From a virus (Duplodnaviria; Caudoviricetes), in IMG/VR virus record IMGVR_UViG_3300020046_004224: a DNA stretch of 64,000 bases; one strand, 5' to 3'. Below the pieces are notes generated by a model, which was given only the letters and a program-made list of their open reading frames with translations, was not told the DNA's origin and made no database searches. The position numbers and the translations under genes are program-made. Positions 2,832 to 55,705 of this stretch are shown piece after piece (positions within the stretch are counted from its first letter, which is position 1; every line of letters begins with the position of its first letter).

Positions 2832-3554
2832 ATGAATGCATATATTGATGACAATCTAAAAGGTTGGATGAATAAGAAAACTGTGGTGGAAGGCCTGGAA
2901 AAAGCTGGATATATCATCATAAGTTTAATTCACCCATCCTTTAGTAGTGAAGTATTACAAGATGGTGTCTTTTACGGAAATGTAGGATTTATTCGAAAAG
3001 TAGTAGATCAATTGAAATATACTCCTAGATGGATTGGTCATGTCCCTGATGATCTTCTATTTCTTGCACGCCGAGAAATTAAAACAGAATCTATTGGAGA
3101 TGTTTTCAAATCTAAAGTTCCTAAATTCATCAAACCTGTTCCCGAAAAGGGAAAGAGTTTTGACGGATTTGTATATAATGCAGATCAACTAGATTCTTTA
3201 TATGTTGCCAACTATTTTATCAATGGAGACGAACAAGTAATCACCAGCGAAGTGGTTAATTTTATTTCCGAATGGCGGTGTTATATCTGTGATGGAGAAA
3301 TCCTAGACGGAAAACATTACAAAGGAGATTTTCGTATTTCCCCTAATTATGCGGTTGCCGATTTCGCCATTGAATGTTGGAAAGATGCTCCTGTTGCATG
3401 GAGTTGTGATCTTGGTATAACTGATCAAGGAACGACTTGTATTGTAGAATGTAATGATGTAATGTCACTCGGCATGTACGGACTTGCATCACATAAAGCT
3501 GCATACATGCTTGAAAAACGTTGGGAACAGATTCATAAAAACAAAGCACTATGA
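2832..3554 (+). CDS. ATP-grasp domain protein (DUF4343/R2K-like)
   Basis: FIKPV, SEVVNFISEWRCY, DLG, VECND motifs. Confidence 0.75.
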   Translation: MNAYIDDNLKGWMNKKTVVEGLEKAGYIIISLIHPSFSSEVLQDGVFYGNVGFIRKVVDQLKYTPRWIGHVPDDLLFLARREIKTESIGDVFKSKVPKFIKPVPEKGKSFDGFVYNADQLDSLYVANYFINGDEQVITSEVVNFISEWRCYICDGEILDGKHYKGDFRISPNYAVADFAIECWKDAPVAWSCDLGITDQGTTCIVECNDVMSLGMYGLASHKAAYMLEKRWEQIHKNKAL

Positions 3555-7142: not shown

Positions 7143-7824
7143 TAAATTTTACGAAATAATTGCAGATGAATCTGAATTGGATAAGTTTTTGAACTTTATT
7201 CCAGACACAGATGATTCTAACCAACTATATTGGAGTCTGTTCGCAAGGAAAAAATATGCAGTTGATCATCCTGCATTGTCCCATGATAAAACCCTTCTAA
7301 AACGGGGGACATCCACGAAAGAAAGACTGCGTTCTAAGTTGAAACAGCTAGAATGTCGTATTGGTGGATATTTAGGAAATAAAGATATTCCGATTCCACA
7401 AGAAGCTCTTGCCGTGTATATTTCTCCCGCTCCTAGAGATATGAAGAAAGCAACACTCAAATGTATTAAATCATTTGCTGATTTGTTGCAAAGGGATAAT
7501 AGTTATAATCTTCATCAAGAAGTATTAAACGTCATCCAGACAACTCATGGAGAGGATAAGTTTCATATTTTTGATATTGATTCGAAGGATATTTCAAATT
7601 TAGGCGTTGCAATGAGATTGGTTGATGAGCGGTGCGATGTGATCGAGACTAGGGGTGGATTTCATATTCTTGTTTCTAGTACTGACATCGAAGAATATGC
7701 CAAAAATTGGGATAAACAGTGGTATATGAAATTATCTAAAATGAGTGATGTTGTCGGAGATTGTCTAACACCTTTATGTGGTTGCTGGCAAGGCGGTTTC
7801 ATTCCCAAACTTATAACAAAATGA
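7129..7824 (+). CDS. hypothetical protein with AEP primase-like motifs
   Basis: FDID acidic motif and ETRGGFH motif. Confidence 0.5.
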   Translation: MNPNNKFYEIIADESELDKFLNFIPDTDDSNQLYWSLFARKKYAVDHPALSHDKTLLKRGTSTKERLRSKLKQLECRIGGYLGNKDIPIPQEALAVYISPAPRDMKKATLKCIKSFADLLQRDNSYNLHQEVLNVIQTTHGEDKFHIFDIDSKDISNLGVAMRLVDERCDVIETRGGFHILVSSTDIEEYAKNWDKQWYMKLSKMSDVVGDCLTPLCGCWQGGFIPKLITK

Positions 7825-9530: not shown

Positions 9531-11222
9531 ATGTTCACTGCAAAACAAACACAATTATTCACAGTTCCAGTTAAAGCAACAGCTAAGGCGAAAACATCCA
9601 CGGGTGTTACCCCTATCTTTGTTCATGCTGCACAAAAGCACACTGTCAAAACTCTATCGGGTAATGGTGCGGTTAAACTAAGTTCAACTCTCGACAATTT
9701 TGTTGATGCATTCGGAAAACTTGGAACCTATAAGGCTCCTCGTCCTTTTGCTGAAATTGAGAAAGATGCAGAACTTCTTTGGGGAACTGATCCATTAACT
9801 TCTGTGAAGTTTATTCACTACCTTCGTACGATTACTCGTAAGACACAACTCTTTGATGGTTCTGTCACCGATGAACCACAAAAAGGTGGTGAACTCAAGT
9901 ATGAACCAATCATGCGTATGATTTGGCTTTCCCAGAAAGCACCAGAAGTGTTCTGGAAAAATATCGGATTGTTCGTATCCCTTGGATCATGGCACGATAT
10001 TTTCACAATGTTGCAATATGATCTTGTCTATAATGGATGGGATAACCGTAAACTTGATTGGAAGAAATTTGGTGATCTAATCCTCACTGCATTGGAAAAC
10101 GAAAAGACTAATAATCTTGTTAAGAAGTATCTTCCACAAATCAAGTCTCGTTCCGACTGTAAAACCGTCGAAGCACAGGCAAATTGTATGATTGGAAAGT
10201 GGATTTGTTCACTCCTTTTTGGACCAAAGGACAATTCTTTCAATTATAAACAATACCGCAAGCTCAAAACTTCTGGTACTGCACATGATTGGCAGCAGTT
10301 GATTTCTCAACGTCAATTCGATAAGATCGATTTTGATAAAATTCATGGTCGTGCATTGAACCTTTTGGTTCGTAGCAAGTTCTTGAAGAATCAGAATCTT
10401 TCTGACAAGTATGCAAAATGGGTGGGTGATCCAAAGACTGCTGTTAAATACACTGGATTTGTTCATGAGTTGTTTGGTAAACTTCCTTCTAGTCTTTCTA
10501 GCTTGGAGAAGCATACCCAGGACACTATCAACAAGCAGTTTGCTACATTGGTGGAGAAGGGGTCGAGTGAGAATAAAGAAGAACAGTGTAATTTTATAGT
10601 TACGAGAGATACCAGCCCGTCGATGTCCTCGCTTGCAACTGGAACAGATATGTCATGTTTCAATATCGCAAAGGCGCTTGCACTCTATTTCTCAGAATTC
10701 CTCACAGGAAGGTTCTCAAATTCTTGGATTGAGTTTAATTCGACCGCAAAAATAAATCAGTGGATCGGAAATTCGCCCCTTGAAAAATGGTATAACGATC
10801 ATTCTCGTTATGTAGGAGGCACCAACTTCCAGAGTGTTATTGATCTATTCGTAACTCTTAAAAATGAAGGAATTGACGAGTCTGAGTTTCCCACTGGAAT
10901 TCTTCTTATTAGTGATTCCGAATTTAATCCGACACAGTTAAACAATACCAATGTAGAAGAGGCTCGCCGAAAACTTCGCACAGTTTTTAGTAACGAGTTC
11001 TCTGAAAAATTCCAAATCGTTCTCTGGAATCTCCAGAACAACTATTATGGAAAAGGTTCAGGCGAGAAGTTTGAAACTACTGCAAATGAAAAAGGTTGCT
11101 ATTACTTCTCAGGGTATAGTGCATCTGTGATCAGTTTCATCACTGGTCACGAAGTTCAGACTGCCCGCCAGTTGTTTGATACAGCGATGGATCAAGAAAT
11201 CATCAATATGGTAACACTGTAA
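9531..11222 (+). CDS. Ro60/TROVE-like helical-repeat plus vWA protein (DUF2828-type)
   Basis: SGNGA N-terminus, LGSWHDI, KKYLP, C-terminal vWA MIDAS DTSPSM, GGTNFQSV, ISDSEF, VLWNL, SGYS. Confidence 0.8.
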   Translation: MFTAKQTQLFTVPVKATAKAKTSTGVTPIFVHAAQKHTVKTLSGNGAVKLSSTLDNFVDAFGKLGTYKAPRPFAEIEKDAELLWGTDPLTSVKFIHYLRTITRKTQLFDGSVTDEPQKGGELKYEPIMRMIWLSQKAPEVFWKNIGLFVSLGSWHDIFTMLQYDLVYNGWDNRKLDWKKFGDLILTALENEKTNNLVKKYLPQIKSRSDCKTVEAQANCMIGKWICSLLFGPKDNSFNYKQYRKLKTSGTAHDWQQLISQRQFDKIDFDKIHGRALNLLVRSKFLKNQNLSDKYAKWVGDPKTAVKYTGFVHELFGKLPSSLSSLEKHTQDTINKQFATLVEKGSSENKEEQCNFIVTRDTSPSMSSLATGTDMSCFNIAKALALYFSEFLTGRFSNSWIEFNSTAKINQWIGNSPLEKWYNDHSRYVGGTNFQSVIDLFVTLKNEGIDESEFPTGILLISDSEFNPTQLNNTNVEEARRKLRTVFSNEFSEKFQIVLWNLQNNYYGKGSGEKFETTANEKGCYYFSGYSASVISFITGHEVQTARQLFDTAMDQEIINMVTL

Positions 11223-11228
11223 AAAATA

Positions 11229-11261
11229 TAAAACCCGTGAAGAACCTCTTCACGGGTTTTA
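11229..11261 (+). terminator. intrinsic terminator
   Basis: AAAACCCGTGAAGA-acc-TCTTCACGGGTTTT. Confidence 0.8.
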
Positions 11262-11511
11262 TTGTTCTCCGAATTATGAAATATACAAAAAGAAACCTAC
11301 ATAAGTTAATCGGTCTTTCCGTTAAGGATGCGAGAGAACAAATAAAAAAATGGTTTAATATGCCTTGTACAGTTAGAGGGTACAATCTGATTTACCCTGC
11401 TATTGCGGTGGAAGGTGTTATTCTATTCGTGGATGATGATAAGGTTCAAAATGAAGATGCACCAGTGGTTTTAGCAGGAGCAGGCGACCCCGCAAGATTA
11501 CAATAACATAT

Positions 11512-11736
11512 ATGAAAGTATCATTCGACGGTCTTAGACGACATATTGCAGAAGATTTCAATGCGCTGATAGGCGAGTTGCATTATCAAAATCCTGAACT
11601 TAAACAGGAAACCAATTGTGACAAACTTATCACAAATTTACGAGGCTCATTAGGAGCACTTATGGCTTGTTACGATTCAAACGAAGAAGATGATTTTAAT
11701 GATTTGAGTGAAGAAATTAAACTTTTAAAGCTTTAG
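11512..11736 (+). CDS. hypothetical protein
   Basis: 74-aa ORF. Confidence 0.55.
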   Translation: MKVSFDGLRRHIAEDFNALIGELHYQNPELKQETNCDKLITNLRGSLGALMACYDSNEEDDFNDLSEEIKLLKL

Positions 11737-11748
11737 CCCAAAATCCTC

Positions 11749-11777
11749 TTGACTCTTCCGATAAATGATGGTAATGT
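11749..11777 (+). promoter_or_regulatory. sigma70 promoter for the first ncRNA sub-array
   Basis: TTGACT-17nt-TAATGT with extended TG; predicted start at about 11784, the first RNA unit. Confidence 0.7.
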
Positions 11778-11785
11778 AAAGGACA

Positions 11786-11850
11786 AGATTTCGCATACAG
11801 CAACTCAATAAACATGATCTCTTAAATCAAACGTTAAAAACCGAAATCTG
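11786..11850 (+). ncRNA. ACAGCAA RNA unit 1 (Y-RNA-like; Lys anticodon-loop cargo)
   Basis: stem AGATTTCG/CGAAATCT, ACAGCAA, internal TGAT-CTCTTAA-ATCA hairpin. Confidence 0.7.
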
Positions 11851-11853
11851 ATA

Positions 11854-11971
11854 GAGTGTCCCAACAGCAAAAACAAAAAACTTTTTTTCTATTCAAAAAA
11901 CCCATCCAAGTTCGAATCTTGGAATCGTTGGCCGGATGATTGGTTGAGGGCAAAACGGCGACTGACACTCG
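11854..11971 (+). ncRNA. ACAGCAA RNA unit 2 (permuted tRNA-like)
   Basis: stem GAGTGTC/GACACTC, ACAGCAA, T arm CCAAG-TTCGAAT-CTTGG followed by a closed acceptor-like stem. Confidence 0.75.
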
Positions 11972-12099
11972 AAACAATTTTAGACGTTAGATATACTCTA
12001 TATTAGCTAATCCTTAAAGAAACATATTGGGAGTTTCAAAATACTGACGAAATAATCAGAAATATTAGAGTAGGGGTGACAAAACGGAAATCCCCAATA

Positions 12100-12228
12100 A
12101 GAATATCAACAGCATAATTAAATTATAACCCAATTCTCGGTCGGAGGTTCGAATCCTTCCAAGTATCTCAGTAGAGACTTGTAGCTCAGTGGTAGAGCAA
12201 GAACTAATAAAACCAAAATGATGTTCTG
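12100..12228 (+). ncRNA. ACAGCA RNA unit 3 (YrlA-like permuted tRNA mimic)
   Basis: stem AGAATATCA/TGATGTTCT; T arm GGAGG-TTCGAAT-CCTTC, loop-closed acceptor, then D arm TA-GCTC-AGTGGTA-GAGC. Confidence 0.85.
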
Positions 12229-12239
12229 AATAATTAAAC

Positions 12240-12404
12240 GCTCTTGTGTCTAATAACGTAGCCGTTACGTAAAATGTACAATGCATGGTATATGCAAAAC
12301 GGACACTCTGAAAGGCCGAAACAGAAATCTAGAAATATGTTACGGATAAAGGGGTTGTATATGAAAAGGATGGTAAGCTAGCTCGAACCTAGCCAAGGGC
12401 ACCA
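12240..12404 (+). ncRNA. oversized tRNA-like RNA (165 nt, CCA end)
   Basis: acceptor GCTCTTG/CAAGGGC-ACCA, T-like arm GCTAG-CTCGAAC-CTAGC, expanded interior. Confidence 0.65.
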
Positions 12405-12416
12405 ATTTTAAAAGTA

Positions 12417-12767
12417 ATGAAACCGAAGATTATAGGATACGAAAAAGATGGTAAATTCTATGGGGTTGCCACACATTTAAGAGGAGTCTATATTAGCAGC
12501 GGCGATATTAATATCTATTATGGTAATGATGTCAGACTTCTAAAAGATTTCGAATCCGCTAAACTTTTAGTTCAAGGTAAGGTTTATAGAGAAGGAACAT
12601 ATTTAAAACTGACTGAAAAAGAATTAGGATCATTTGGACGAGGCCGATTGTTTATATCAACTATTAAAAATGCTAAAGAATTCGAGATTACAAATAAATA
12701 TCCTAGTGATTCTACCGGAACAGTTGCACTGAGAGCATCATTTAAATTGACAAAGGATAGTAAGTAG
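12417..12767 (+). CDS. hypothetical protein inside the ncRNA array
   Basis: 116-aa ORF. Confidence 0.6.
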   Translation: MKPKIIGYEKDGKFYGVATHLRGVYISSGDINIYYGNDVRLLKDFESAKLLVQGKVYREGTYLKLTEKELGSFGRGRLFISTIKNAKEFEITNKYPSDSTGTVALRASFKLTKDSK

Positions 12768-12775
12768 TGTAAAGT
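12747..12775 (+). promoter_or_regulatory. sigma70 promoter for the second ncRNA sub-array
   Basis: TTGACA-17nt-TAAAGT directly before unit 4. Confidence 0.7.
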
Positions 12776-12782
12776 AAAGATA

Positions 12783-12840
12783 GAAGGACAGACAGCAAAT
12801 TAACACTTTTTATATGGTTTAAAAAACAAAGTGTCCTTCG
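12783..12840 (+). ncRNA. ACAGCAA RNA unit 4
   Basis: stem GAAGGACA/TGTCCTTC, ACAGCAA, small AU hairpin cargo. Confidence 0.7.
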
Positions 12841-12844
12841 GATA

Positions 12845-12966
12845 AGGTTCAAATCAGCAATACAATACAAAAACTCTTATTACGAACAAGCCGATCCAGT
12901 GCAATCCTGGTAATTGTGTAAGTCATCTACAAGTCCTAGTGGACAGGAAAAAGATACATGAACCTG
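12845..12966 (+). ncRNA. TCAGCAA RNA unit 5 (degenerate permuted tRNA-like)
   Basis: stem AGGTTCA/TGAACCT; CCAG-TGCAATC-CTGG T-like arm then TCCT-AGTGGAC-AGGA D-like arm. Confidence 0.7.
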
Positions 12967-12969
12967 AAA

Positions 12970-13029
12970 AAAACATTAACAGCAAAACCCAAAGGTTATC
13001 GAAGTTCAATTCTTCAAAATAATGTTTTG
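12970..13029 (+). ncRNA. ACAGCAA RNA unit 6 (mini tRNA-elbow cargo)
   Basis: stem AAAACATTA/TAATGTTTT; AACC/GGTT hairpin plus GAAG-TTCAATT-CTTC T arm. Confidence 0.65.
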
Positions 13030-13033
13030 TACA

Positions 13034-13169
13034 AAGTCATCAACCGCAATTATAACTTCTAAAGCAAAATCGCCGCCGAAAGGCTTTCGGGTTCAAGTCC
13101 CGACATAACCTTAACTGGCTGTGGTGAAATTGGTAAACACGGCGAAAAAGAAAACAAAATGGTGACTTG
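13034..13169 (+). ncRNA. ACCGCAA RNA unit 7 (permuted tRNA-Leu-like)
   Basis: stem AAGTCATCA/TGGTGACTT; TCGCC/GGCGA, V arm GCC-GAAA-GGC, T arm TCGGG-TTCAAGT-CCCGA, D arm GTG-AAATTGGTAAA-CAC. Confidence 0.85.
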
Positions 13170-13173
13170 AATA

Positions 13174-13353
13174 AAAATTCTAACAGCATATTAAATAATA
13201 AATAACGGCTCTAAGGTACTATAAGTCGGGAAACTGATCCAGGATGGTCTAATAAATGCTCGCTAAATCGAAAGACATGTGAGAAAGACGGGACAAAGGA
13301 TGGTAATCGAAAGACCCATAATCTGTAAGCCACATAAAAAAGATAGAATTTTG
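13174..13353 (+). ncRNA. ACAGCA RNA unit 8 (large multi-hairpin cargo)
   Basis: stem AAAATTCTA/TAGAATTTT, ACAGCAT, GGCT...AGCC domain with GAAA tetraloops. Confidence 0.65.
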
Positions 13354-13419
13354 AAAATATAAAATTACGTTTCACGGGATTGTCTGCCTTTGTTTTGTGT
13401 TTATATTTCATATTTGTTG

Positions 13420-13458
13420 AAAAAACCCCATAGGAGCGATTCTATGGGGTTTTTATTT
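13420..13458 (+). terminator. intrinsic terminator closing the ncRNA array
   Basis: AAAAACCCCATAGGA-gcga-TTCTATGGGGTTTTT. Confidence 0.8.
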
Positions 13459-13494
13459 GTATTGACTGTATAACAAACATTACTAAATAGCAGT

Positions 13495-20868: not shown

Positions 20869-21762
20869 ATGCTCTACAACACACGCATTGCCCCATCGCC
20901 AACAGGATTCATTCATCTTGGTAACATCCGCACGGCATACCATAACTGGCTTGCTGCACGATCAACCGGGGGGAGGTTTGTTCTACGTATTGATGATACT
21001 GATAAAGCTCGTAGTGAAGAACAGTATGTTGATAAAATCTATGAAACTTTCCAATGGCTAGGACTTGATTATGATTCCACATTTCGCCAAAGCTCACGTT
21101 TAGATTTCTATAAAAATCTTGCACATAGGTTGATCAAAGCAGGACTTGCCGAAGAAATCGAAGGTGGTGCAATCCGATTGATTGTTAACTATAAAATTCC
21201 AGAATCTTGGACAGATATTATTGCGGGCAATGTCACCACATCTGCAAAAGATTTAGATGTTTTGAACAATATCATCATCATTCGCAGTGATCAAAATCCT
21301 ACATACAACTTTGCAAGCATTGTCGATGATATGACAACAGAGGTGAATTTGATCATTCGTGGAACTGATCATATCTCAAATACCATCAAACAGCTTGCAA
21401 TCATCGAAGCATTTAAACAATTAGAACATCCTGCGATTGGTATCTTATTTGATCGAGAAGTAAAATTTGCGCATGTCGGATTGGTATTTGAAAAGGGTAA
21501 GAAACTGTCAAAGCGTGACGGCTCAAGCAACTTCGATACACATAGAGATAACGGCACTGATCCTGATGCTATTCTTAACTGGATTCTTCGACTTGGTTGG
21601 AGTCCGTCTGATGCGAATTTCGATGCAAAAGAACCGATTATTACCAAAGACCGTGCCAAGGAAATTTTCTGGACTGATGGCTCTATGAGGAATTCATCCG
21701 CTAGTCTGGATATGAATAAACTGAATTTTTACAACAAAAAATACAAAAACCTAAAGAAATAA
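20869..21762 (+). CDS. glutamyl-tRNA synthetase catalytic domain only (GluRS/GluQRS-like)
   Basis: TRIAPSPTG, HLGN, LRIDDTD, RGTDH, KLSKR; no anticodon-binding domain. Confidence 0.88.
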   Translation: MLYNTRIAPSPTGFIHLGNIRTAYHNWLAARSTGGRFVLRIDDTDKARSEEQYVDKIYETFQWLGLDYDSTFRQSSRLDFYKNLAHRLIKAGLAEEIEGGAIRLIVNYKIPESWTDIIAGNVTTSAKDLDVLNNIIIIRSDQNPTYNFASIVDDMTTEVNLIIRGTDHISNTIKQLAIIEAFKQLEHPAIGILFDREVKFAHVGLVFEKGKKLSKRDGSSNFDTHRDNGTDPDAILNWILRLGWSPSDANFDAKEPIITKDRAKEIFWTDGSMRNSSASLDMNKLNFYNKKYKNLKK

Positions 21763-25925: not shown

Positions 25926-26432
25926 ATGAAATTTATCGAATTGTATAATCTGTTGACCGATTCATATTCAGATGAAACACCAAAAGTTTCTATATCGGAC
26001 CTAATTATACGAGGTCAGAAACTTGACGGAAAATCGATAAAGATAGAGTTTTCGAACGGGGCATACACTAATGGAGTTATACGGAAGTGGTTCAATCCCA
26101 AAACATTCGAAGAAAAAGATTACAGTATAGGAATTGTTTCATGGGGCGCAACCCCTATGTCATCTATTATGGATAGAGGTCTTATTGCTCAAAAGGACTA
26201 TAAGGGGCGTGGATTTGCTTCCAAATGTTTTAACGAATTACTCAAGATAGCCAAACAAAATAATATAGATATCTTTACTATTTTTGCTCCCTCGGACGAT
26301 AGCCAAGCTGTTATGAAGAATTATACAGATAAAAATGTATTAATCCCCATAGAAAGCAGTAAAGCTGCATATGGAGATTTTTACACCGAATTTCGTATAA
26401 ACTGGTCGGAGGCTAATAAAAGATTAAACTAA
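25926..26432 (+). CDS. GNAT-family acetyltransferase
   Basis: DYKGRGFASK acetyl-CoA binding motif. Confidence 0.65.
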   Translation: MKFIELYNLLTDSYSDETPKVSISDLIIRGQKLDGKSIKIEFSNGAYTNGVIRKWFNPKTFEEKDYSIGIVSWGATPMSSIMDRGLIAQKDYKGRGFASKCFNELLKIAKQNNIDIFTIFAPSDDSQAVMKNYTDKNVLIPIESSKAAYGDFYTEFRINWSEANKRLN

Positions 26433-27689
26433 CTTTGTAATTGGAAGTTCTTTATTTCCAACTGACATAGGTCTTCCTGGGGCGGAGCTTTCTAAAGGTG
26501 TCATCCACGGTTTAGCCGGATCAATCCCAAGGAAATGGCCCACTGTGGCATTAAACATACCAGGAGTTACATGATCCTCTTCGACCCGTTCTCCGTTAGG
26601 AGTAGTCTTACCAATGGCATATCCACCGAGATTTAAACCACCAAGAAGCATAGAAAATGCTTGCGCATGGTGATCTTTTCCCATATTAATATTTATTTTA
26701 GGAGTTCTTCCGAAATCTGTTGCAACAACAATCAATGTATCTTTTAAGAGTCCTTCGTTCTTCAAATCACCGAATAGTGAAGACAATGCTTTATCTAAAT
26801 CACCACCACGTTGTGTCATGTTGGTTTCGATGTCAGTATGCATGTCAAATCCGCCATAGGTTACTTCACAATAACGAACACCACTCTTTATCAATCTTTT
26901 TGCAAGCAACAGACCACTACCGATTTGGGTTCTTCCATAAGTGTCTCTTGCCTCTGGAGTTTCTTTATTCAAATCAAACACATTCAAATCGTCGCTTTTC
27001 AATAGTTTCAATGCTTCATCATATATTGAAGAATATGCACTCACATCAGATGTGTTAAAATTCTTTATGAAGTTATTATTCAGTGTATTTAGCACATTGT
27101 TTCGGCTATTAAATTCTGTTTCTGATCCTAATATTTTACTATATCTTAGACCCTCATTTGGATTAAGAATTGAAAGTGGATAGTACTTCTTATTAAAATA
27201 TCCACCACCAGGATTATCTGTATCAGGGGATATAGAAACATAATCAGGAATAGAGGGATGGAGTTTGCCCAACATACTGTATGATATTGATCCCATAGTT
27301 GGATGAATTATCAAACTACTCTTATTGTAAGAGGTTTTGATTGTATATTTCGACATTGCATGGGCACCAGATTTGGATACCATGCTTCTTACTGGAATAA
27401 ATTTGTCTCCGTGCTTTGCAAGGTTTGGATAATAACTTGAAATCAAGAAATCTCCAGTTGTTTTTATTGCCGTTGCATTTCCTCTTATTTCTACATCTTC
27501 TTTCGGGTCTAAAAAGTCAGTATGAGATATTCCTCCATCGAGATAGATGTATATGACATGCTTTGCTTTTCCAAAAGTTCCATTCCCGTTAGTTGATGCA
27601 AATAGATTATTAGGAAGCATACTAACTCCTAATGTTCCGAGTGCCAACTTTTCAATAAATGATCTACGTGATTCTGTATTGTTTTCCAT
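26424..27689 (-). CDS. DUF1501 family protein with Tat signal
   Basis: MENNTESRRSFI Tat leader; IYIYLDGGISH.D.LDPK, YGGFDMH, TDFGRTP, GKDHH. Confidence 0.88.
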   Translation of the reverse strand: MENNTESRRSFIEKLALGTLGVSMLPNNLFASTNGNGTFGKAKHVIYIYLDGGISHTDFLDPKEDVEIRGNATAIKTTGDFLISSYYPNLAKHGDKFIPVRSMVSKSGAHAMSKYTIKTSYNKSSLIIHPTMGSISYSMLGKLHPSIPDYVSISPDTDNPGGGYFNKKYYPLSILNPNEGLRYSKILGSETEFNSRNNVLNTLNNNFIKNFNTSDVSAYSSIYDEALKLLKSDDLNVFDLNKETPEARDTYGRTQIGSGLLLAKRLIKSGVRYCEVTYGGFDMHTDIETNMTQRGGDLDKALSSLFGDLKNEGLLKDTLIVVATDFGRTPKININMGKDHHAQAFSMLLGGLNLGGYAIGKTTPNGERVEEDHVTPGMFNATVGHFLGIDPAKPWMTPLESSAPGRPMSVGNKELPITKLV

Positions 27690-27690
27690 A

Positions 27691-27867
27691 TTAATATTTT
27701 TGCTTTTCGATATCTCGGAGTTCGGTTCTCCATATTTCCTTCTTACTTTCAAAATTCTTGTCACCTGTATCAGGCATCTCGACAAGTTTTTTCATATTAA
27801 AAATTCTTTCTGCCATCTTGTGTAGGCATTGCTCTTGATCACACTGTAAAATTAGTAAGTTGTCCAT
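27691..27867 (-). CDS. small hypothetical protein (58 aa)
   Basis: ORF MDNLLILQC... fills the gap between the DUF1549 and DUF1501 genes. Confidence 0.5.
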   Translation of the reverse strand: MDNLLILQCDQEQCLHKMAERIFNMKKLVEMPDTGDKNFESKKEIWRTELRDIEKQKY

Positions 27868-27868
27868 A

Positions 27869-29575
27869 TTATTTTTTAAATAGAAATTCGCGAGAATTGA
27901 CCAATGCCCATATAAGGTCTTTCTCTTCTGTTTTTGTTATTAAATCTTTTTCCTCAAGGGTCGGTAGCCGTGAATATACTGTTAAAAATATATCTTTCTT
28001 ATCAAGATTAGTTATCAAAGATTCCTTACTGTTAACTAGCTCCATAACTGGGGAATTCATCATAACCAATAACTGGGTTATGCTACCACCATTATCACTT
28101 GAGTCTATTAATATTCTGTCTGAGCTTCCATATTCTTTGAGGAATTGCCCAACGAAACTATTCTTGTTCATCACATATGCTGATCGAACTAATTCTATGT
28201 TTTTATATTTTAAAAAGTTGACGCTCATCTCCCTATCATATTTTCGAATATCTTCCATTTTATCAAGAAGAAGCTTACCATTGACATTCACCCAATCTAT
28301 TTCAATAAGATCAGCATATTTTTGAAAAACGACACGGGAATAATTTGTATCTGGCAGTATAAATGTTAATATACTATCCCATAATTGATATGCAGATAAT
28401 CTCTGAACCAAAACAGACTGGTGATTGTAGTTGACCATATTATCGTTGTATGCCACTCTATTATAAAAATCCGAAGAGATTATATGGCGAATTAACTCAC
28501 GCACACTGTAATTATGGGACTCTAAATAATCACCTAGATATTTTACTACTTGACCCTCTTTATGATCGTTTATAATAAAATTTATTTCAGGATTTATAAG
28601 TGGAGCACCTACTATATGTTTCCACATTCTATTAGCTATTGCATATGAGAAATTATCGTGTGTAGTTATCCATTCAGATATAGTGTCTCTTTTATCCTTA
28701 GTAGTGTTTTTAATCTTCCCGTCTAACGATACCGGAACAACTTCTTCAAAAGGCTTCCCATCTTTGTATTTGTAATCATGTGGAAGTTTTATCATCTTCC
28801 CGTCATTATTCTTCAAATTAAATAAATTTGATGCTAGTAGTTGTCTAACACCATTATCTATTCGGTCCTTCTTTGTGATTTCTTTGATTTCTTGATCAAC
28901 TCTTTTCAGAATATCACCGTACTCTTTTCGAGATTCTCTATTGTCAACAGTTGTAAAAAATGCTGCCATTTCAAAGAATTGTCTTTGTGTATAATCTTGG
29001 AAAGGATCGTCATGACACTGTGCGCAGGAAAGGTCTGTAGCAGTGAAAATTTGAAGAGTTGTAGCCAAATTATCGAGGGGTGTACCGTTATCACGTAGAA
29101 TATAACCAGTCGCCCCATTGTCAGAGTATCTACCAGTTGCAGTTAATAGATCATATACAAATTTATTATATGGTTTATCTGTTCGTATAGAATTTCTCAC
29201 ATAGTCCATATATGGATATGATTTTAAAAGACCGACATCATCAGATAATCTCTCTGGACGTATTCTTAGAATATCTGCCCAAAAATTATAAAGGTTATTA
29301 ACATAATCCTCAGAATTGAGAACTTTATCGATAACCTTTTCTTTCTTTGTAGGTGATTTATCTTGAGTGAATTCGTTTATTTCCTTTAGTGTTGGAATTC
29401 TTCCTGCAACATTTAAATATGTTCTACGTATCCATGTATTATCATCTATTTTAGTTGCAACTCCTTTGATGGAATTCTTAGAATAAAATGACTGTAATTC
29501 TTTGTCAAGATCGTTAAATCCGCTTCCTAATATAGGAATTACACATAACAGTAAGGATAACAAAATAGTTTTCAT
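27869..29575 (-). CDS. DUF1549/DUF1553 (PSD1-type) secreted protein
   Basis: signal peptide; IRRTYLNVAGRIPT, DKPYNKFV.DLLTA, CAQCHD, ANRMW, RLSAYQLWDS, WALVNSREF. Confidence 0.88.
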   Translation of the reverse strand: MKTILLSLLLCVIPILGSGFNDLDKELQSFYSKNSIKGVATKIDDNTWIRRTYLNVAGRIPTLKEINEFTQDKSPTKKEKVIDKVLNSEDYVNNLYNFWADILRIRPERLSDDVGLLKSYPYMDYVRNSIRTDKPYNKFVYDLLTATGRYSDNGATGYILRDNGTPLDNLATTLQIFTATDLSCAQCHDDPFQDYTQRQFFEMAAFFTTVDNRESRKEYGDILKRVDQEIKEITKKDRIDNGVRQLLASNLFNLKNNDGKMIKLPHDYKYKDGKPFEEVVPVSLDGKIKNTTKDKRDTISEWITTHDNFSYAIANRMWKHIVGAPLINPEINFIINDHKEGQVVKYLGDYLESHNYSVRELIRHIISSDFYNRVAYNDNMVNYNHQSVLVQRLSAYQLWDSILTFILPDTNYSRVVFQKYADLIEIDWVNVNGKLLLDKMEDIRKYDREMSVNFLKYKNIELVRSAYVMNKNSFVGQFLKEYGSSDRILIDSSDNGGSITQLLVMMNSPVMELVNSKESLITNLDKKDIFLTVYSRLPTLEEKDLITKTEEKDLIWALVNSREFLFKK

Positions 29576-55629: not shown

Positions 55630-55705
55630 TGGTGGGCTAGACACGACTTGAACGTGCAACTTAGAAATTAAAAGTTTCTTATTCTACCAATTGAATTACT
55701 AACCC
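55630..55705 (-). tRNA. tRNA-Lys(TTT)
   Basis: AGAAA-CTTTTAA-TTTCT; CCA. Confidence 0.9.

Follow-up and report, generated by a model that had tools for sequence, protein, structure and literature searches.

A Ro60-shaped protein and an array of eight handle-bearing RNAs in a tRNA-rich phage: probably a second kind of Ro/Y-RNA particle

Why would a phage encode a protein shaped like Ro60 and, next to it, a series of small structured RNAs that lack the known Y RNA motif? The question is raised by a 64,000-nucleotide stretch of viral DNA (IMG/VR record IMGVR_UViG_3300020046_004224; Duplodnaviria, Caudoviricetes), hereafter the window, in which the gene for a 563-aa protein (9531..11222, + strand) lies on the same strand as an array of RNA units running from about 11750 to 13454. 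To our knowledge, Ro60 with its Y RNAs is the only particle of its kind so far. Based on the predicted fold of the protein, the covariation of a shared RNA handle, the linkage of gene and RNAs in other phages, and the nature of the RNA cargos, we consider it likely that the eight RNAs are Y-RNA-like partners of the Ro60-shaped protein, with the handle docking on the protein and tRNA-like cargos being displayed for counter-defence. Protein and handle RNAs would probably form a second kind of Ro/Y-RNA particle that takes part in the phage-host fight over tRNAs.

The initial annotation of this DNA had called the protein Ro-like and divergent, and structure prediction bears this out. An AlphaFold2 model built from an alignment with 103 homologs (27-83% identity) reached a mean predicted local distance difference test score (pLDDT) of 92.6 and a predicted template modelling score of 0.91; it replaced a single-sequence model (pLDDT 37), which was discarded. 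In a Foldseek search of the PDB, ranks 1-10 were all Ro60 or TROVE structures, headed by the Ro60 of Thermus phage phiLo (E 1.2e-7). VIA-align placed model residues 36-543 on chain residues 11-537 of Xenopus Ro60 (1YVP_A; Z 19.1, 425 residues aligned, root-mean-square deviation 4.1), compared with a Z of ~11 for plain von Willebrand factor A (vWA) domains. The protein is thereby predicted to be a HEAT-like helical ring followed by a C-terminal vWA domain with a MIDAS (metal ion-dependent adhesion site), in other words the full-length Ro60 fold, and the D360, S362 and S364 residues of its DxSxS MIDAS motif are invariant in the 103 homologs. At the level of sequence, identity to Ro60 structures is 9-15%, phmmer against PDB sequences returned nothing meaningful, and a profile of the family found Ro60 as its best match among PDB sequences (E 5.8e-4) in the vWA part only. 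The protein matches Pfam DUF7788 (PF25043) above the cut-off (2.3e-11; 43.8 bits vs 27.1) and PHROG 850, "RNA-binding protein" (7.9e-32). Its homologs in phages A511, Douge, Los1, Chewbecca, Fnu1, B3 and Bas63 exceed the cut-offs of both DUF7788 and DUF2828, and a protein atlas search returned viral DUF2828 clusters only. Since the modelled fold is of the Ro60 type and there is no TROVE match, the protein appears to have Ro60 architecture yet to form a separate sequence family.

What, then, do the RNAs look like? By handle we mean a 7-9 bp helix that would join the ends of each RNA, together with an internal loop (ACAGCA(A/U) on the 5′ side; A-rich, often ACAAA, on the 3′ side); the remainder of each unit is its cargo. 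The units are:

Unit 1, 11786..11850, + strand: handle and hairpin UGAU-CUCUUAA-AUCA, a look-alike of the tRNA-Lys anticodon arm.
Unit 2, 11854..11971, + strand: handle, T arm CCAAG-UUCGAAU-CUUGG and more hairpins.
Unit 3, 12100..12228, + strand: handle with ACAGCAU and a permuted tRNA-like body (T arm, acceptor-like hairpin, D arm), a YrlA-type cargo.
Unit 4, 12783..12840, + strand: handle, hairpin of a U-run and an A-run, 3′ ACAAA motif; the best match to the family model.
Unit 5, 12845..12966, + strand: handle with the variant AUCAGCAA, T-arm-like hairpin CCAG-UGCAAUC-CUGG and hairpin GUCC-UAGU-GGAC.
Unit 6, 12970..13029, + strand: handle, small hairpin and T arm GAAG-UUCAAUU-CUUC.
Unit 7, 13034..13169, + strand: handle with ACCGCAA and a permuted tRNA-like body with T arm CGGG-UUCAAGU-CCCG and a D-arm-like element.
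Unit 8, 13174..13353, + strand: handle with ACAGCAU and a 130-nt structured cargo.

All eight units that had been annotated are thus present where they had been placed, all on the + strand. The closing helix was said to vary in sequence with its pairing intact; it measures 7-9 bp in each unit, also forms in the minimum-free-energy folds, and is backed by the covariation described below. A G flanks the 3′ end in 8 of 8 units, again as annotated. The ACAGCA(A/T)-type motif, which sits 0-3 nt after the 5′ strand of the helix, had been assigned to every unit. It reads ACAGCAA in units 1, 2, 4 and 6 and ACAGCAU in units 3 and 8; units 5 and 7 have the variants AUCAGCAA and ACCGCAA, respectively. 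The 3′ ACAAA motif of unit 4 is common to many short units.

This combination of stem and motif is concentrated in the array beyond chance. Over both strands of the 64-kb window there are 5 copies of ACAGCAA, of which 4 fall within 11797-12985 on the + strand. A stem-plus-motif finder returned 7 units in the 1.6-kb array and 13 matches in the other ~126 kb (both strands), of which only 2 carry the 3′ G; a Poisson estimate from these counts gives ~0.17 expected in the array (p ~1e-9). Two finder matches in the tRNA region (56733-56510 and 55816-55583, - strand) were rejected, as they lie outside the tRNA genes, look coding-like and are unseen by either covariance model introduced next. The first model, R1, was made from 11 short units, one from the window and the rest from seven other phage loci; a second, R2, was rebuilt from the 47 matches to R1 at E ≤ 1, which came from 16 sources and were all on the strand of the protein gene. 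With filters off, R1 found units 4, 2, 1 and 6 in the whole window at E values from 2e-11 to 0.04, with every other match at E 2.8 or above, and the handle-model test with R1 and R2 recovered units 4, 1, 2 and 6 at E 3.5e-7 to 0.014. By unit, R1 gave 63.6 bits for unit 4 (but this unit belongs to the R1 training set), 26.6 bits for unit 2 (E 0.002), 23.8 for unit 1 and 20.8 for unit 6; R2 gave 33.6 bits for unit 1, 26 for unit 6, 20.8 for unit 5 (E 0.15, fifth-best in the window) and 13.7 for unit 7. Fold z-scores were -3.4 for unit 4, -2.75 for unit 6 and -2.64 for unit 7.

In the alignment fitted to R1, the closing helix is 96.6% paired, compared with 32-45% when the partners are slid, and 7 of 7 pairs show double changes. 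A second line of comparison comes from one syntenic IMG/VR contig (our pieces L002 and L023), whose protein is 83% identical to that of the window and whose orthologs back units 3-8; unit 2 has an ortholog in L002 as well. In units 4, 5 and 7, the closing stems and the hairpins of the cargos differ from those of the relative by compensatory substitutions: there are two in the stem of unit 4, both cargo hairpins of unit 5 covary, and the closing stem and T stem of unit 7 covary around a motif that reads ACAGCAU in the relative. The ortholog of unit 8 (in L023) is conserved exactly to the 3′ G, where similarity ends. Judged from these alignments, what the RNAs have in common is a closing stem that covaries and a single-stranded motif that stays fixed. 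The cargos, which had been proposed to be interchangeable, do appear so between orthologous positions: at the position of unit 6 the relative keeps the handle and has a different cargo. The spacer between units 2 and 3 (11972-12099) holds no handle in the window. The matching part of L002 (~7556-7662) holds an extra unit with stem AGAGUAU/AUACUCU, ACAGCAA and a T-arm cargo, which suggests that units are gained, lost or replaced within the array.

If handle and motif define a particle, they should keep company with the protein gene elsewhere, and the initial annotation had named such linkage as a check. The best named relative is Leptolyngbya phage Lbo-JY46 (43% protein identity), in which five units lie directly 3′ of the gene with 4-nt linkers; each has (U)UACAGCAA, and these units also bear (C)UUACAGCAA. 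Six IMG/VR relatives have arrays of 1-6 units. Six further phages, at ~21-25% protein identity, have handle units beside a DUF2828-type gene:

Listeria phage A511: the protein gene's leader carries three units.
Bacillus phage Chewbecca: units inside and after the tRNA array.
Fusobacterium phage Fnu1: handle units beside the DUF2828-type gene.
Synechococcus phage B3: handle units beside the DUF2828-type gene.
Mycobacterium phage Douge: three downstream units, one with a YrlA-like body.
Campylobacter phage Los1: handle units beside the DUF2828-type gene.

Over 632 kb of complete genomes from five phages, 14 of 14 matches at E ≤ 0.1 fell within ~3.3 kb of the gene and on its strand, 10 of them from outside the training set. 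The control mycobacteriophage Bxz1, which has a canonical TROVE Ro60 (98 bits), gave no handle match at E ≤ 1 in 156 kb. The pairing of gene and handle RNA recurs in at least eight phage lineages with very different hosts. Two further observations concern the A511 locus: between the DUF2828-type gene and the tRNA array there is a ROOL RNA match (L010 3498-4049; 87.5 bits vs a cut-off of 99.1), and RtcB, an RNA ligase and an HD phosphohydrolase are encoded downstream.

These comparisons also bear on whether the units are functional RNAs at all. They might instead be tRNA genes in decay, repeats, or leader or attenuator elements that act in cis on nearby genes, an idea to which the tRNA-derived arms in several cargos and the placement of units in the leader of the protein gene in some phages lend some colour. 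We consider it extremely improbable and already disfavoured, given the compensatory changes in closing stems and cargo hairpins around a fixed single-stranded motif, the conservation of unit 8 that stops exactly at the unit end, and the promoter-like sites and terminator that the array has of its own in the window (listed below). The location of the units also varies among phages, from upstream of the gene to downstream of it; a leader element would fit this less well than RNAs acting in trans.

A relative with a reported activity exists in Escherichia phage JohannRWettstein (Bas63). Its gp130 is reported to have a Ro60-like structure and to counter the Ppl defence, and gp130 alone, from a plasmid or from T7, reportedly restored growth of T7 on a Ppl strain (PhageMaP preprint, 10.1101/2024.10.10.617714). 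The authors of that study guess that some annotated tRNAs might be Y RNAs of gp130 (10.1101/2024.10.10.617714). By our searches bas63_0130 belongs to the same protein family as the window protein (DUF7788 2.4e-43, DUF2828 1.5e-29, profile A5 E 1.4e-53), and the two share ~24-25% identity, an estimate based on related Felix O1-type phages. Three unannotated handle RNAs occupy gaps of the tRNA cluster just downstream of the gene (MZ501086 82238-82909) and have these positions in our excerpt L022:

2439-2500: handle RNA.
2892-2964: handle RNA.
2978-3110: handle RNA.

The unit at 82238-82299 is an R1 match; of the two others, both found by eye, one has UUCAGCAA and the other a permuted tRNA-like body. 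Unlike the array of the window, these RNAs are hidden between tRNA genes. Two of them overlap a short opposite-strand coding sequence annotated as "hypothetical protein", bas63_0137, which makes that coding sequence doubtful.

Gene and array are arranged in the window as follows, in addition to the units:

11228..11262: terminator, a hairpin plus U-run directly 3′ of the protein gene, from a terminator scan.
11237-11506: overlapping 89-aa open reading frame (ORF), doubtful.
11512..11736, + strand: 74-aa ORF between gene and array; no known family, partly conserved in L002.
11750..11778, + strand: promoter-like site TTGACT-17-TAATGT before unit 1; weak by consensus, -10 block conserved in L002.
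12241..12403, + strand: tRNA-like RNA without a handle, 163 nt, conserved in L002.
12417..12767, + strand: 116-aa ORF within the array; no known family, conserved in L002.
12747..12775, + strand: promoter-like site TTGACA-17-TAAAGT before unit 4; 10 of 12 consensus positions.
13421..13454, + strand: intrinsic terminator closing the array, from the terminator scan.

The units had been described as following the gene, with two promoters and a terminator that ends the array. They do lie downstream on the same strand, at a gap of 564 bp from gene end to unit 1, and so do not abut the gene: the gap holds its terminator and two small ORFs. The array is also interrupted by the 163-nt tRNA-like RNA and the 116-aa ORF. 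The terminator at the end was recovered by the scan, as was the promoter at 12747; the one at 11749 fell below the scan threshold, though its -10 block is conserved in the relative. At both promoter-like sites a GU(A/G)-rich block ending in GTAAAG precedes the first unit (11765-11785 and 12764-12782). Conserved in L002, this block may serve as a phage-specific promoter or start signal. An Rfam match to His_leader was judged spurious, as it picks up the terminator hairpin at 11228-11262.

Several results weigh against a joint particle of protein and RNAs. With its own terminator and ~560 bp between it and the array, the gene would form a transcription unit separate from the RNAs. The activity of gp130 without the RNAs of Bas63 indicates that its anti-Ppl function needs no phage RNAs of its own. 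Units 3, 7 and 8 are recognised by neither R1 nor R2 (unit 7 is at noise level in R2; units 3 and 8, with variant motifs and cargos of 100-150 nt, are missed), so they rest on the comparison with the syntenic relative. Finally, the protein itself scores only 20.4 bits against Pfam DUF2828 (PF11443), under the cut-off of 29, and has no match to TROVE (PF05731) at E ≤ 0.01.

The first two of these results, and the fact that units lie inside tRNA clusters in several phages, would suit a scenario in which the RNAs act alone and the Ro60-like protein is a mere neighbour. Stem and ACAGCAA could then signal processing or stability, or be bound by a host factor or another phage protein; the RNAs could be free baits or regulators; and co-location could come from the clustering of RNA and RNA-metabolism genes in phages. 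We regard this as unlikely. The linkage also holds where the units sit outside tRNA clusters, in Lbo-JY46, Douge and the window; the DUF2828-type gene is the only neighbour common to all compared loci; the five complete genomes have no match away from it; and its product is predicted to have the fold of a dedicated small-RNA binder.

A Y-RNA-like partnership with the protein is our preferred reading for a further reason, the nature of the cargos. Permuted tRNA-like bodies that follow the terminal stem with T arm, acceptor-like hairpin and D arm are seen in units 3 and 7, and T-arm-type hairpins in units 2, 5 and 6. A 7-nt loop CU(C/U)UUAA on a covarying stem of 4-5 bp occurs in handle units of seven loci, unit 1 and six related ones. 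The same loop is found in the tRNA-Lys of the window (anticodon arm AGAAA-CUUUUAA-UUUCU, 55663-55679, - strand), and this anticodon loop is the target of the anticodon nuclease PrrC. ARAGORN, including relaxed settings, called no credible tRNA in the array. The conserved 130-nt fold in the cargo of unit 8 had no match in any comparison made. The possibility that it mimics ribosomal RNA was rejected, as blastn against E. coli genomes gave chance-level matches only.

The handle-less tRNA-like RNA within the array is a separate case. It has a 7-bp acceptor stem GCUCUUG/CAAGGGC (the L002 strand is GCCCUUG), a T arm GCUAG-CUCGAAC-CUAGC that abuts the acceptor strand, and an ACCA 3′ end, from which the ATG of the 116-aa ORF is 13 nt away. 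Its identity to L002, 92%, exceeds that of the coding DNA that flanks it, and frameshifting indels in L002 indicate that the region is not coding. Neither ARAGORN nor Rfam called it. As a general part of the system it was rejected, since its exact 3′ half was present in the contig of L002 only and blastn found none in the other relatives.

How does this compare with known particles? YrlA RNAs occur beside TROVE genes in bacteria and mycobacteriophages, carry a GNCGAA-type motif and are modified by tRNA enzymes (Chen et al. 2014, PMC4201824), and the Ro60 of Thermus phage phiLo is a canonical TROVE protein with the CGAA-motif RNAs Yrl1 and Yrl2 (PMC12135203; PDB 9KOP, 9L5Y). The window system resembles Ro60 and Y RNAs in its helical-repeat ring with vWA domain and MIDAS, in small RNAs encoded beside the gene, and in RNA ends joined in a stem that leads to an internal loop and an effector module; as in YrlA, some of these modules are permuted tRNA-like bodies. 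A match to Rfam YrlA (RF02553), which had been proposed as a check, was obtained for unit 3 at 32.4 bits (E 1.7e-4), below the gathering cut-off of 69; the L002 ortholog of unit 3 likewise matches, and the window, L002 and Douge all have units with YrlA-like matches. There are also differences. The phage handle is a single-stranded ACAGCAA beside a sequence-variable stem, in place of the bulged conserved helix or GNCGAA/CGAA motif of Y RNAs, in agreement with the initial proposal of a handle of its own; up to eight RNAs are encoded per locus, many of them 55-65 nt with a single-hairpin cargo; and the protein stands apart from Ro60 by the low identity and missing TROVE match given above. We found no paper or Rfam family describing the handle RNAs, and a full-text search for DUF2828 returned unrelated papers only; relative to the literature and Rfam families searched, the handle RNA family is new.

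From these features we infer binding of the RNAs to the protein, processing in the A/U-rich linkers and a role in counter-defence. The two promoters would probably give two polycistronic transcripts, which would probably be cut apart in the 3-5 nt A/U-rich linkers. The constant handle would dock on the Ro60-like protein and the variable cargo would be held outward from the particle. We hypothesize that such particles show look-alike parts of tRNAs to anticodon nucleases, to tRNA repair or modification enzymes and to exoribonucleases, and that the cargos act as bait or tethers for proteins that read or cut tRNAs, leading to counter-defence. A model for the tether role is the Y RNA that tethers Ro60 to PNPase.

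The same RNAs could bind the protein for another purpose, as gatekeepers or regulators of its activity, with the tRNA-like cargos serving as tags for host tRNA enzymes and not as baits; the RNAs would then be stabilised or matured by modification, CCA addition and the RNase P and Z enzymes. The dual role established for Y RNAs, which includes blocking access to the Ro60 cavity, the modification of YrlA by tRNA enzymes (PMC4201824), and the activity of gp130 alone (10.1101/2024.10.10.617714) all agree with this. Eight different cargos, cargo swaps and a retained bare anticodon arm exceed what a simple lid needs, and we consider a gatekeeper role quite unlikely.

Outside phages, the closest resemblance is to the Class I RNAs of social amoebae. 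Unit 1 scores 23.9 bits against Rfam RF01414 (Dictyostelium Class I), and relatives reach 39.3, 37.2, 34.5, 33.4, 32.5 and 30.7 bits; the best, 39.3 bits, is from Lbo-JY46, and all phage matches are below the gathering cut-off of 41.5. Class I RNAs are ~55-65 nt long, with a short end-joining stem and a variable interior, a conserved motif (CC)UUACAGCAA that ends in ACAGCAA directly after the 5′ strand, an A-rich stretch before the 3′ strand and a G after it, all of which recall the phage units. They differ in being eukaryotic nuclear genes with a promoter element of their own, the Dictyostelium upstream sequence element (DUSE), and in their known binder Rnp1A, which is not a Ro60-like protein. 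None have been reported outside Dictyostelia, and the direct binder Rnp1A is an RNA recognition motif protein (Kjellin et al. 2021, PMC7919456). In the literature searched on DdR-21, one of the Class I RNAs, three other pulled-down proteins are not named. We speculate, and hold it to be rather doubtful, that phage handle RNAs and Class I RNAs are one family with one kind of partner, so that a DUF2828-type Ro60-like protein would be the missing core binder in social amoebae, perhaps with relatives in other DUF2828-bearing eukaryotes, as a second, pan-domain Ro/Y-RNA-like ribonucleoprotein used by phages and giant viruses in tRNA conflicts.

The window is part of a large, tRNA-rich phage. It holds 17 tRNA genes, all more than 30 kb from the array, along with genes for ribonucleotide reductase, thymidylate synthase and a T4-type clamp loader, and Ro60-like proteins of this family are encoded on contigs of up to 204 kb. 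Pfam scans of 20 ORFs around the locus found no RNA-repair gene, and at the DNA level blastn did not match the locus to any of 50,697 phage records. A 297-aa protein (20869-21762, + strand) comprises nothing but the catalytic domain of a class I Glu/Gln-tRNA synthetase (3.3e-55) and, in size and composition, recalls glutamyl-Q tRNA(Asp) synthetase, a tRNA anticodon modifier. Neighbouring genes at 26424-29575 (- strand) encode DUF1501 and PSCyt2/PSD1 (DUF1549/DUF1553) domains, a pair that is typical of Planctomycetota and relatives and unusual in a phage, and that may hint at the host.

Public sequencing reads are neutral on expression, as the runs were chosen for holding the array and neither ends nor levels can be read from their contigs. 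The share of sampled words present in a run was at most 0.22, and two raw-read wastewater runs gave no reads. In a run labelled as complementary DNA, which the read-search tool rates as probably DNA, identical contigs cover 12778-12927 and 13115-13375 alone, and a tiny RNA-seq run has one 233-nt contig (13063-13295, 5 differences).

If the proposed partnership is true, Ro60 with its Y RNAs would gain a sister particle that has its own RNA handle and a modular display of tRNA parts, spread over phages of cyanobacteria, Firmicutes, Actinobacteria, Fusobacteria, Campylobacter and enterobacteria. Such a particle would offer a testable mechanism for the reported action of Bas63 gp130 against Ppl, account for many gaps that lack annotation in phage tRNA clusters, and bring a large RNA family into the catalogues. 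For the first time, there would be a lead from outside the amoebae on the partners and role of the abundant and long-unexplained Class I RNAs of Dictyostelium.

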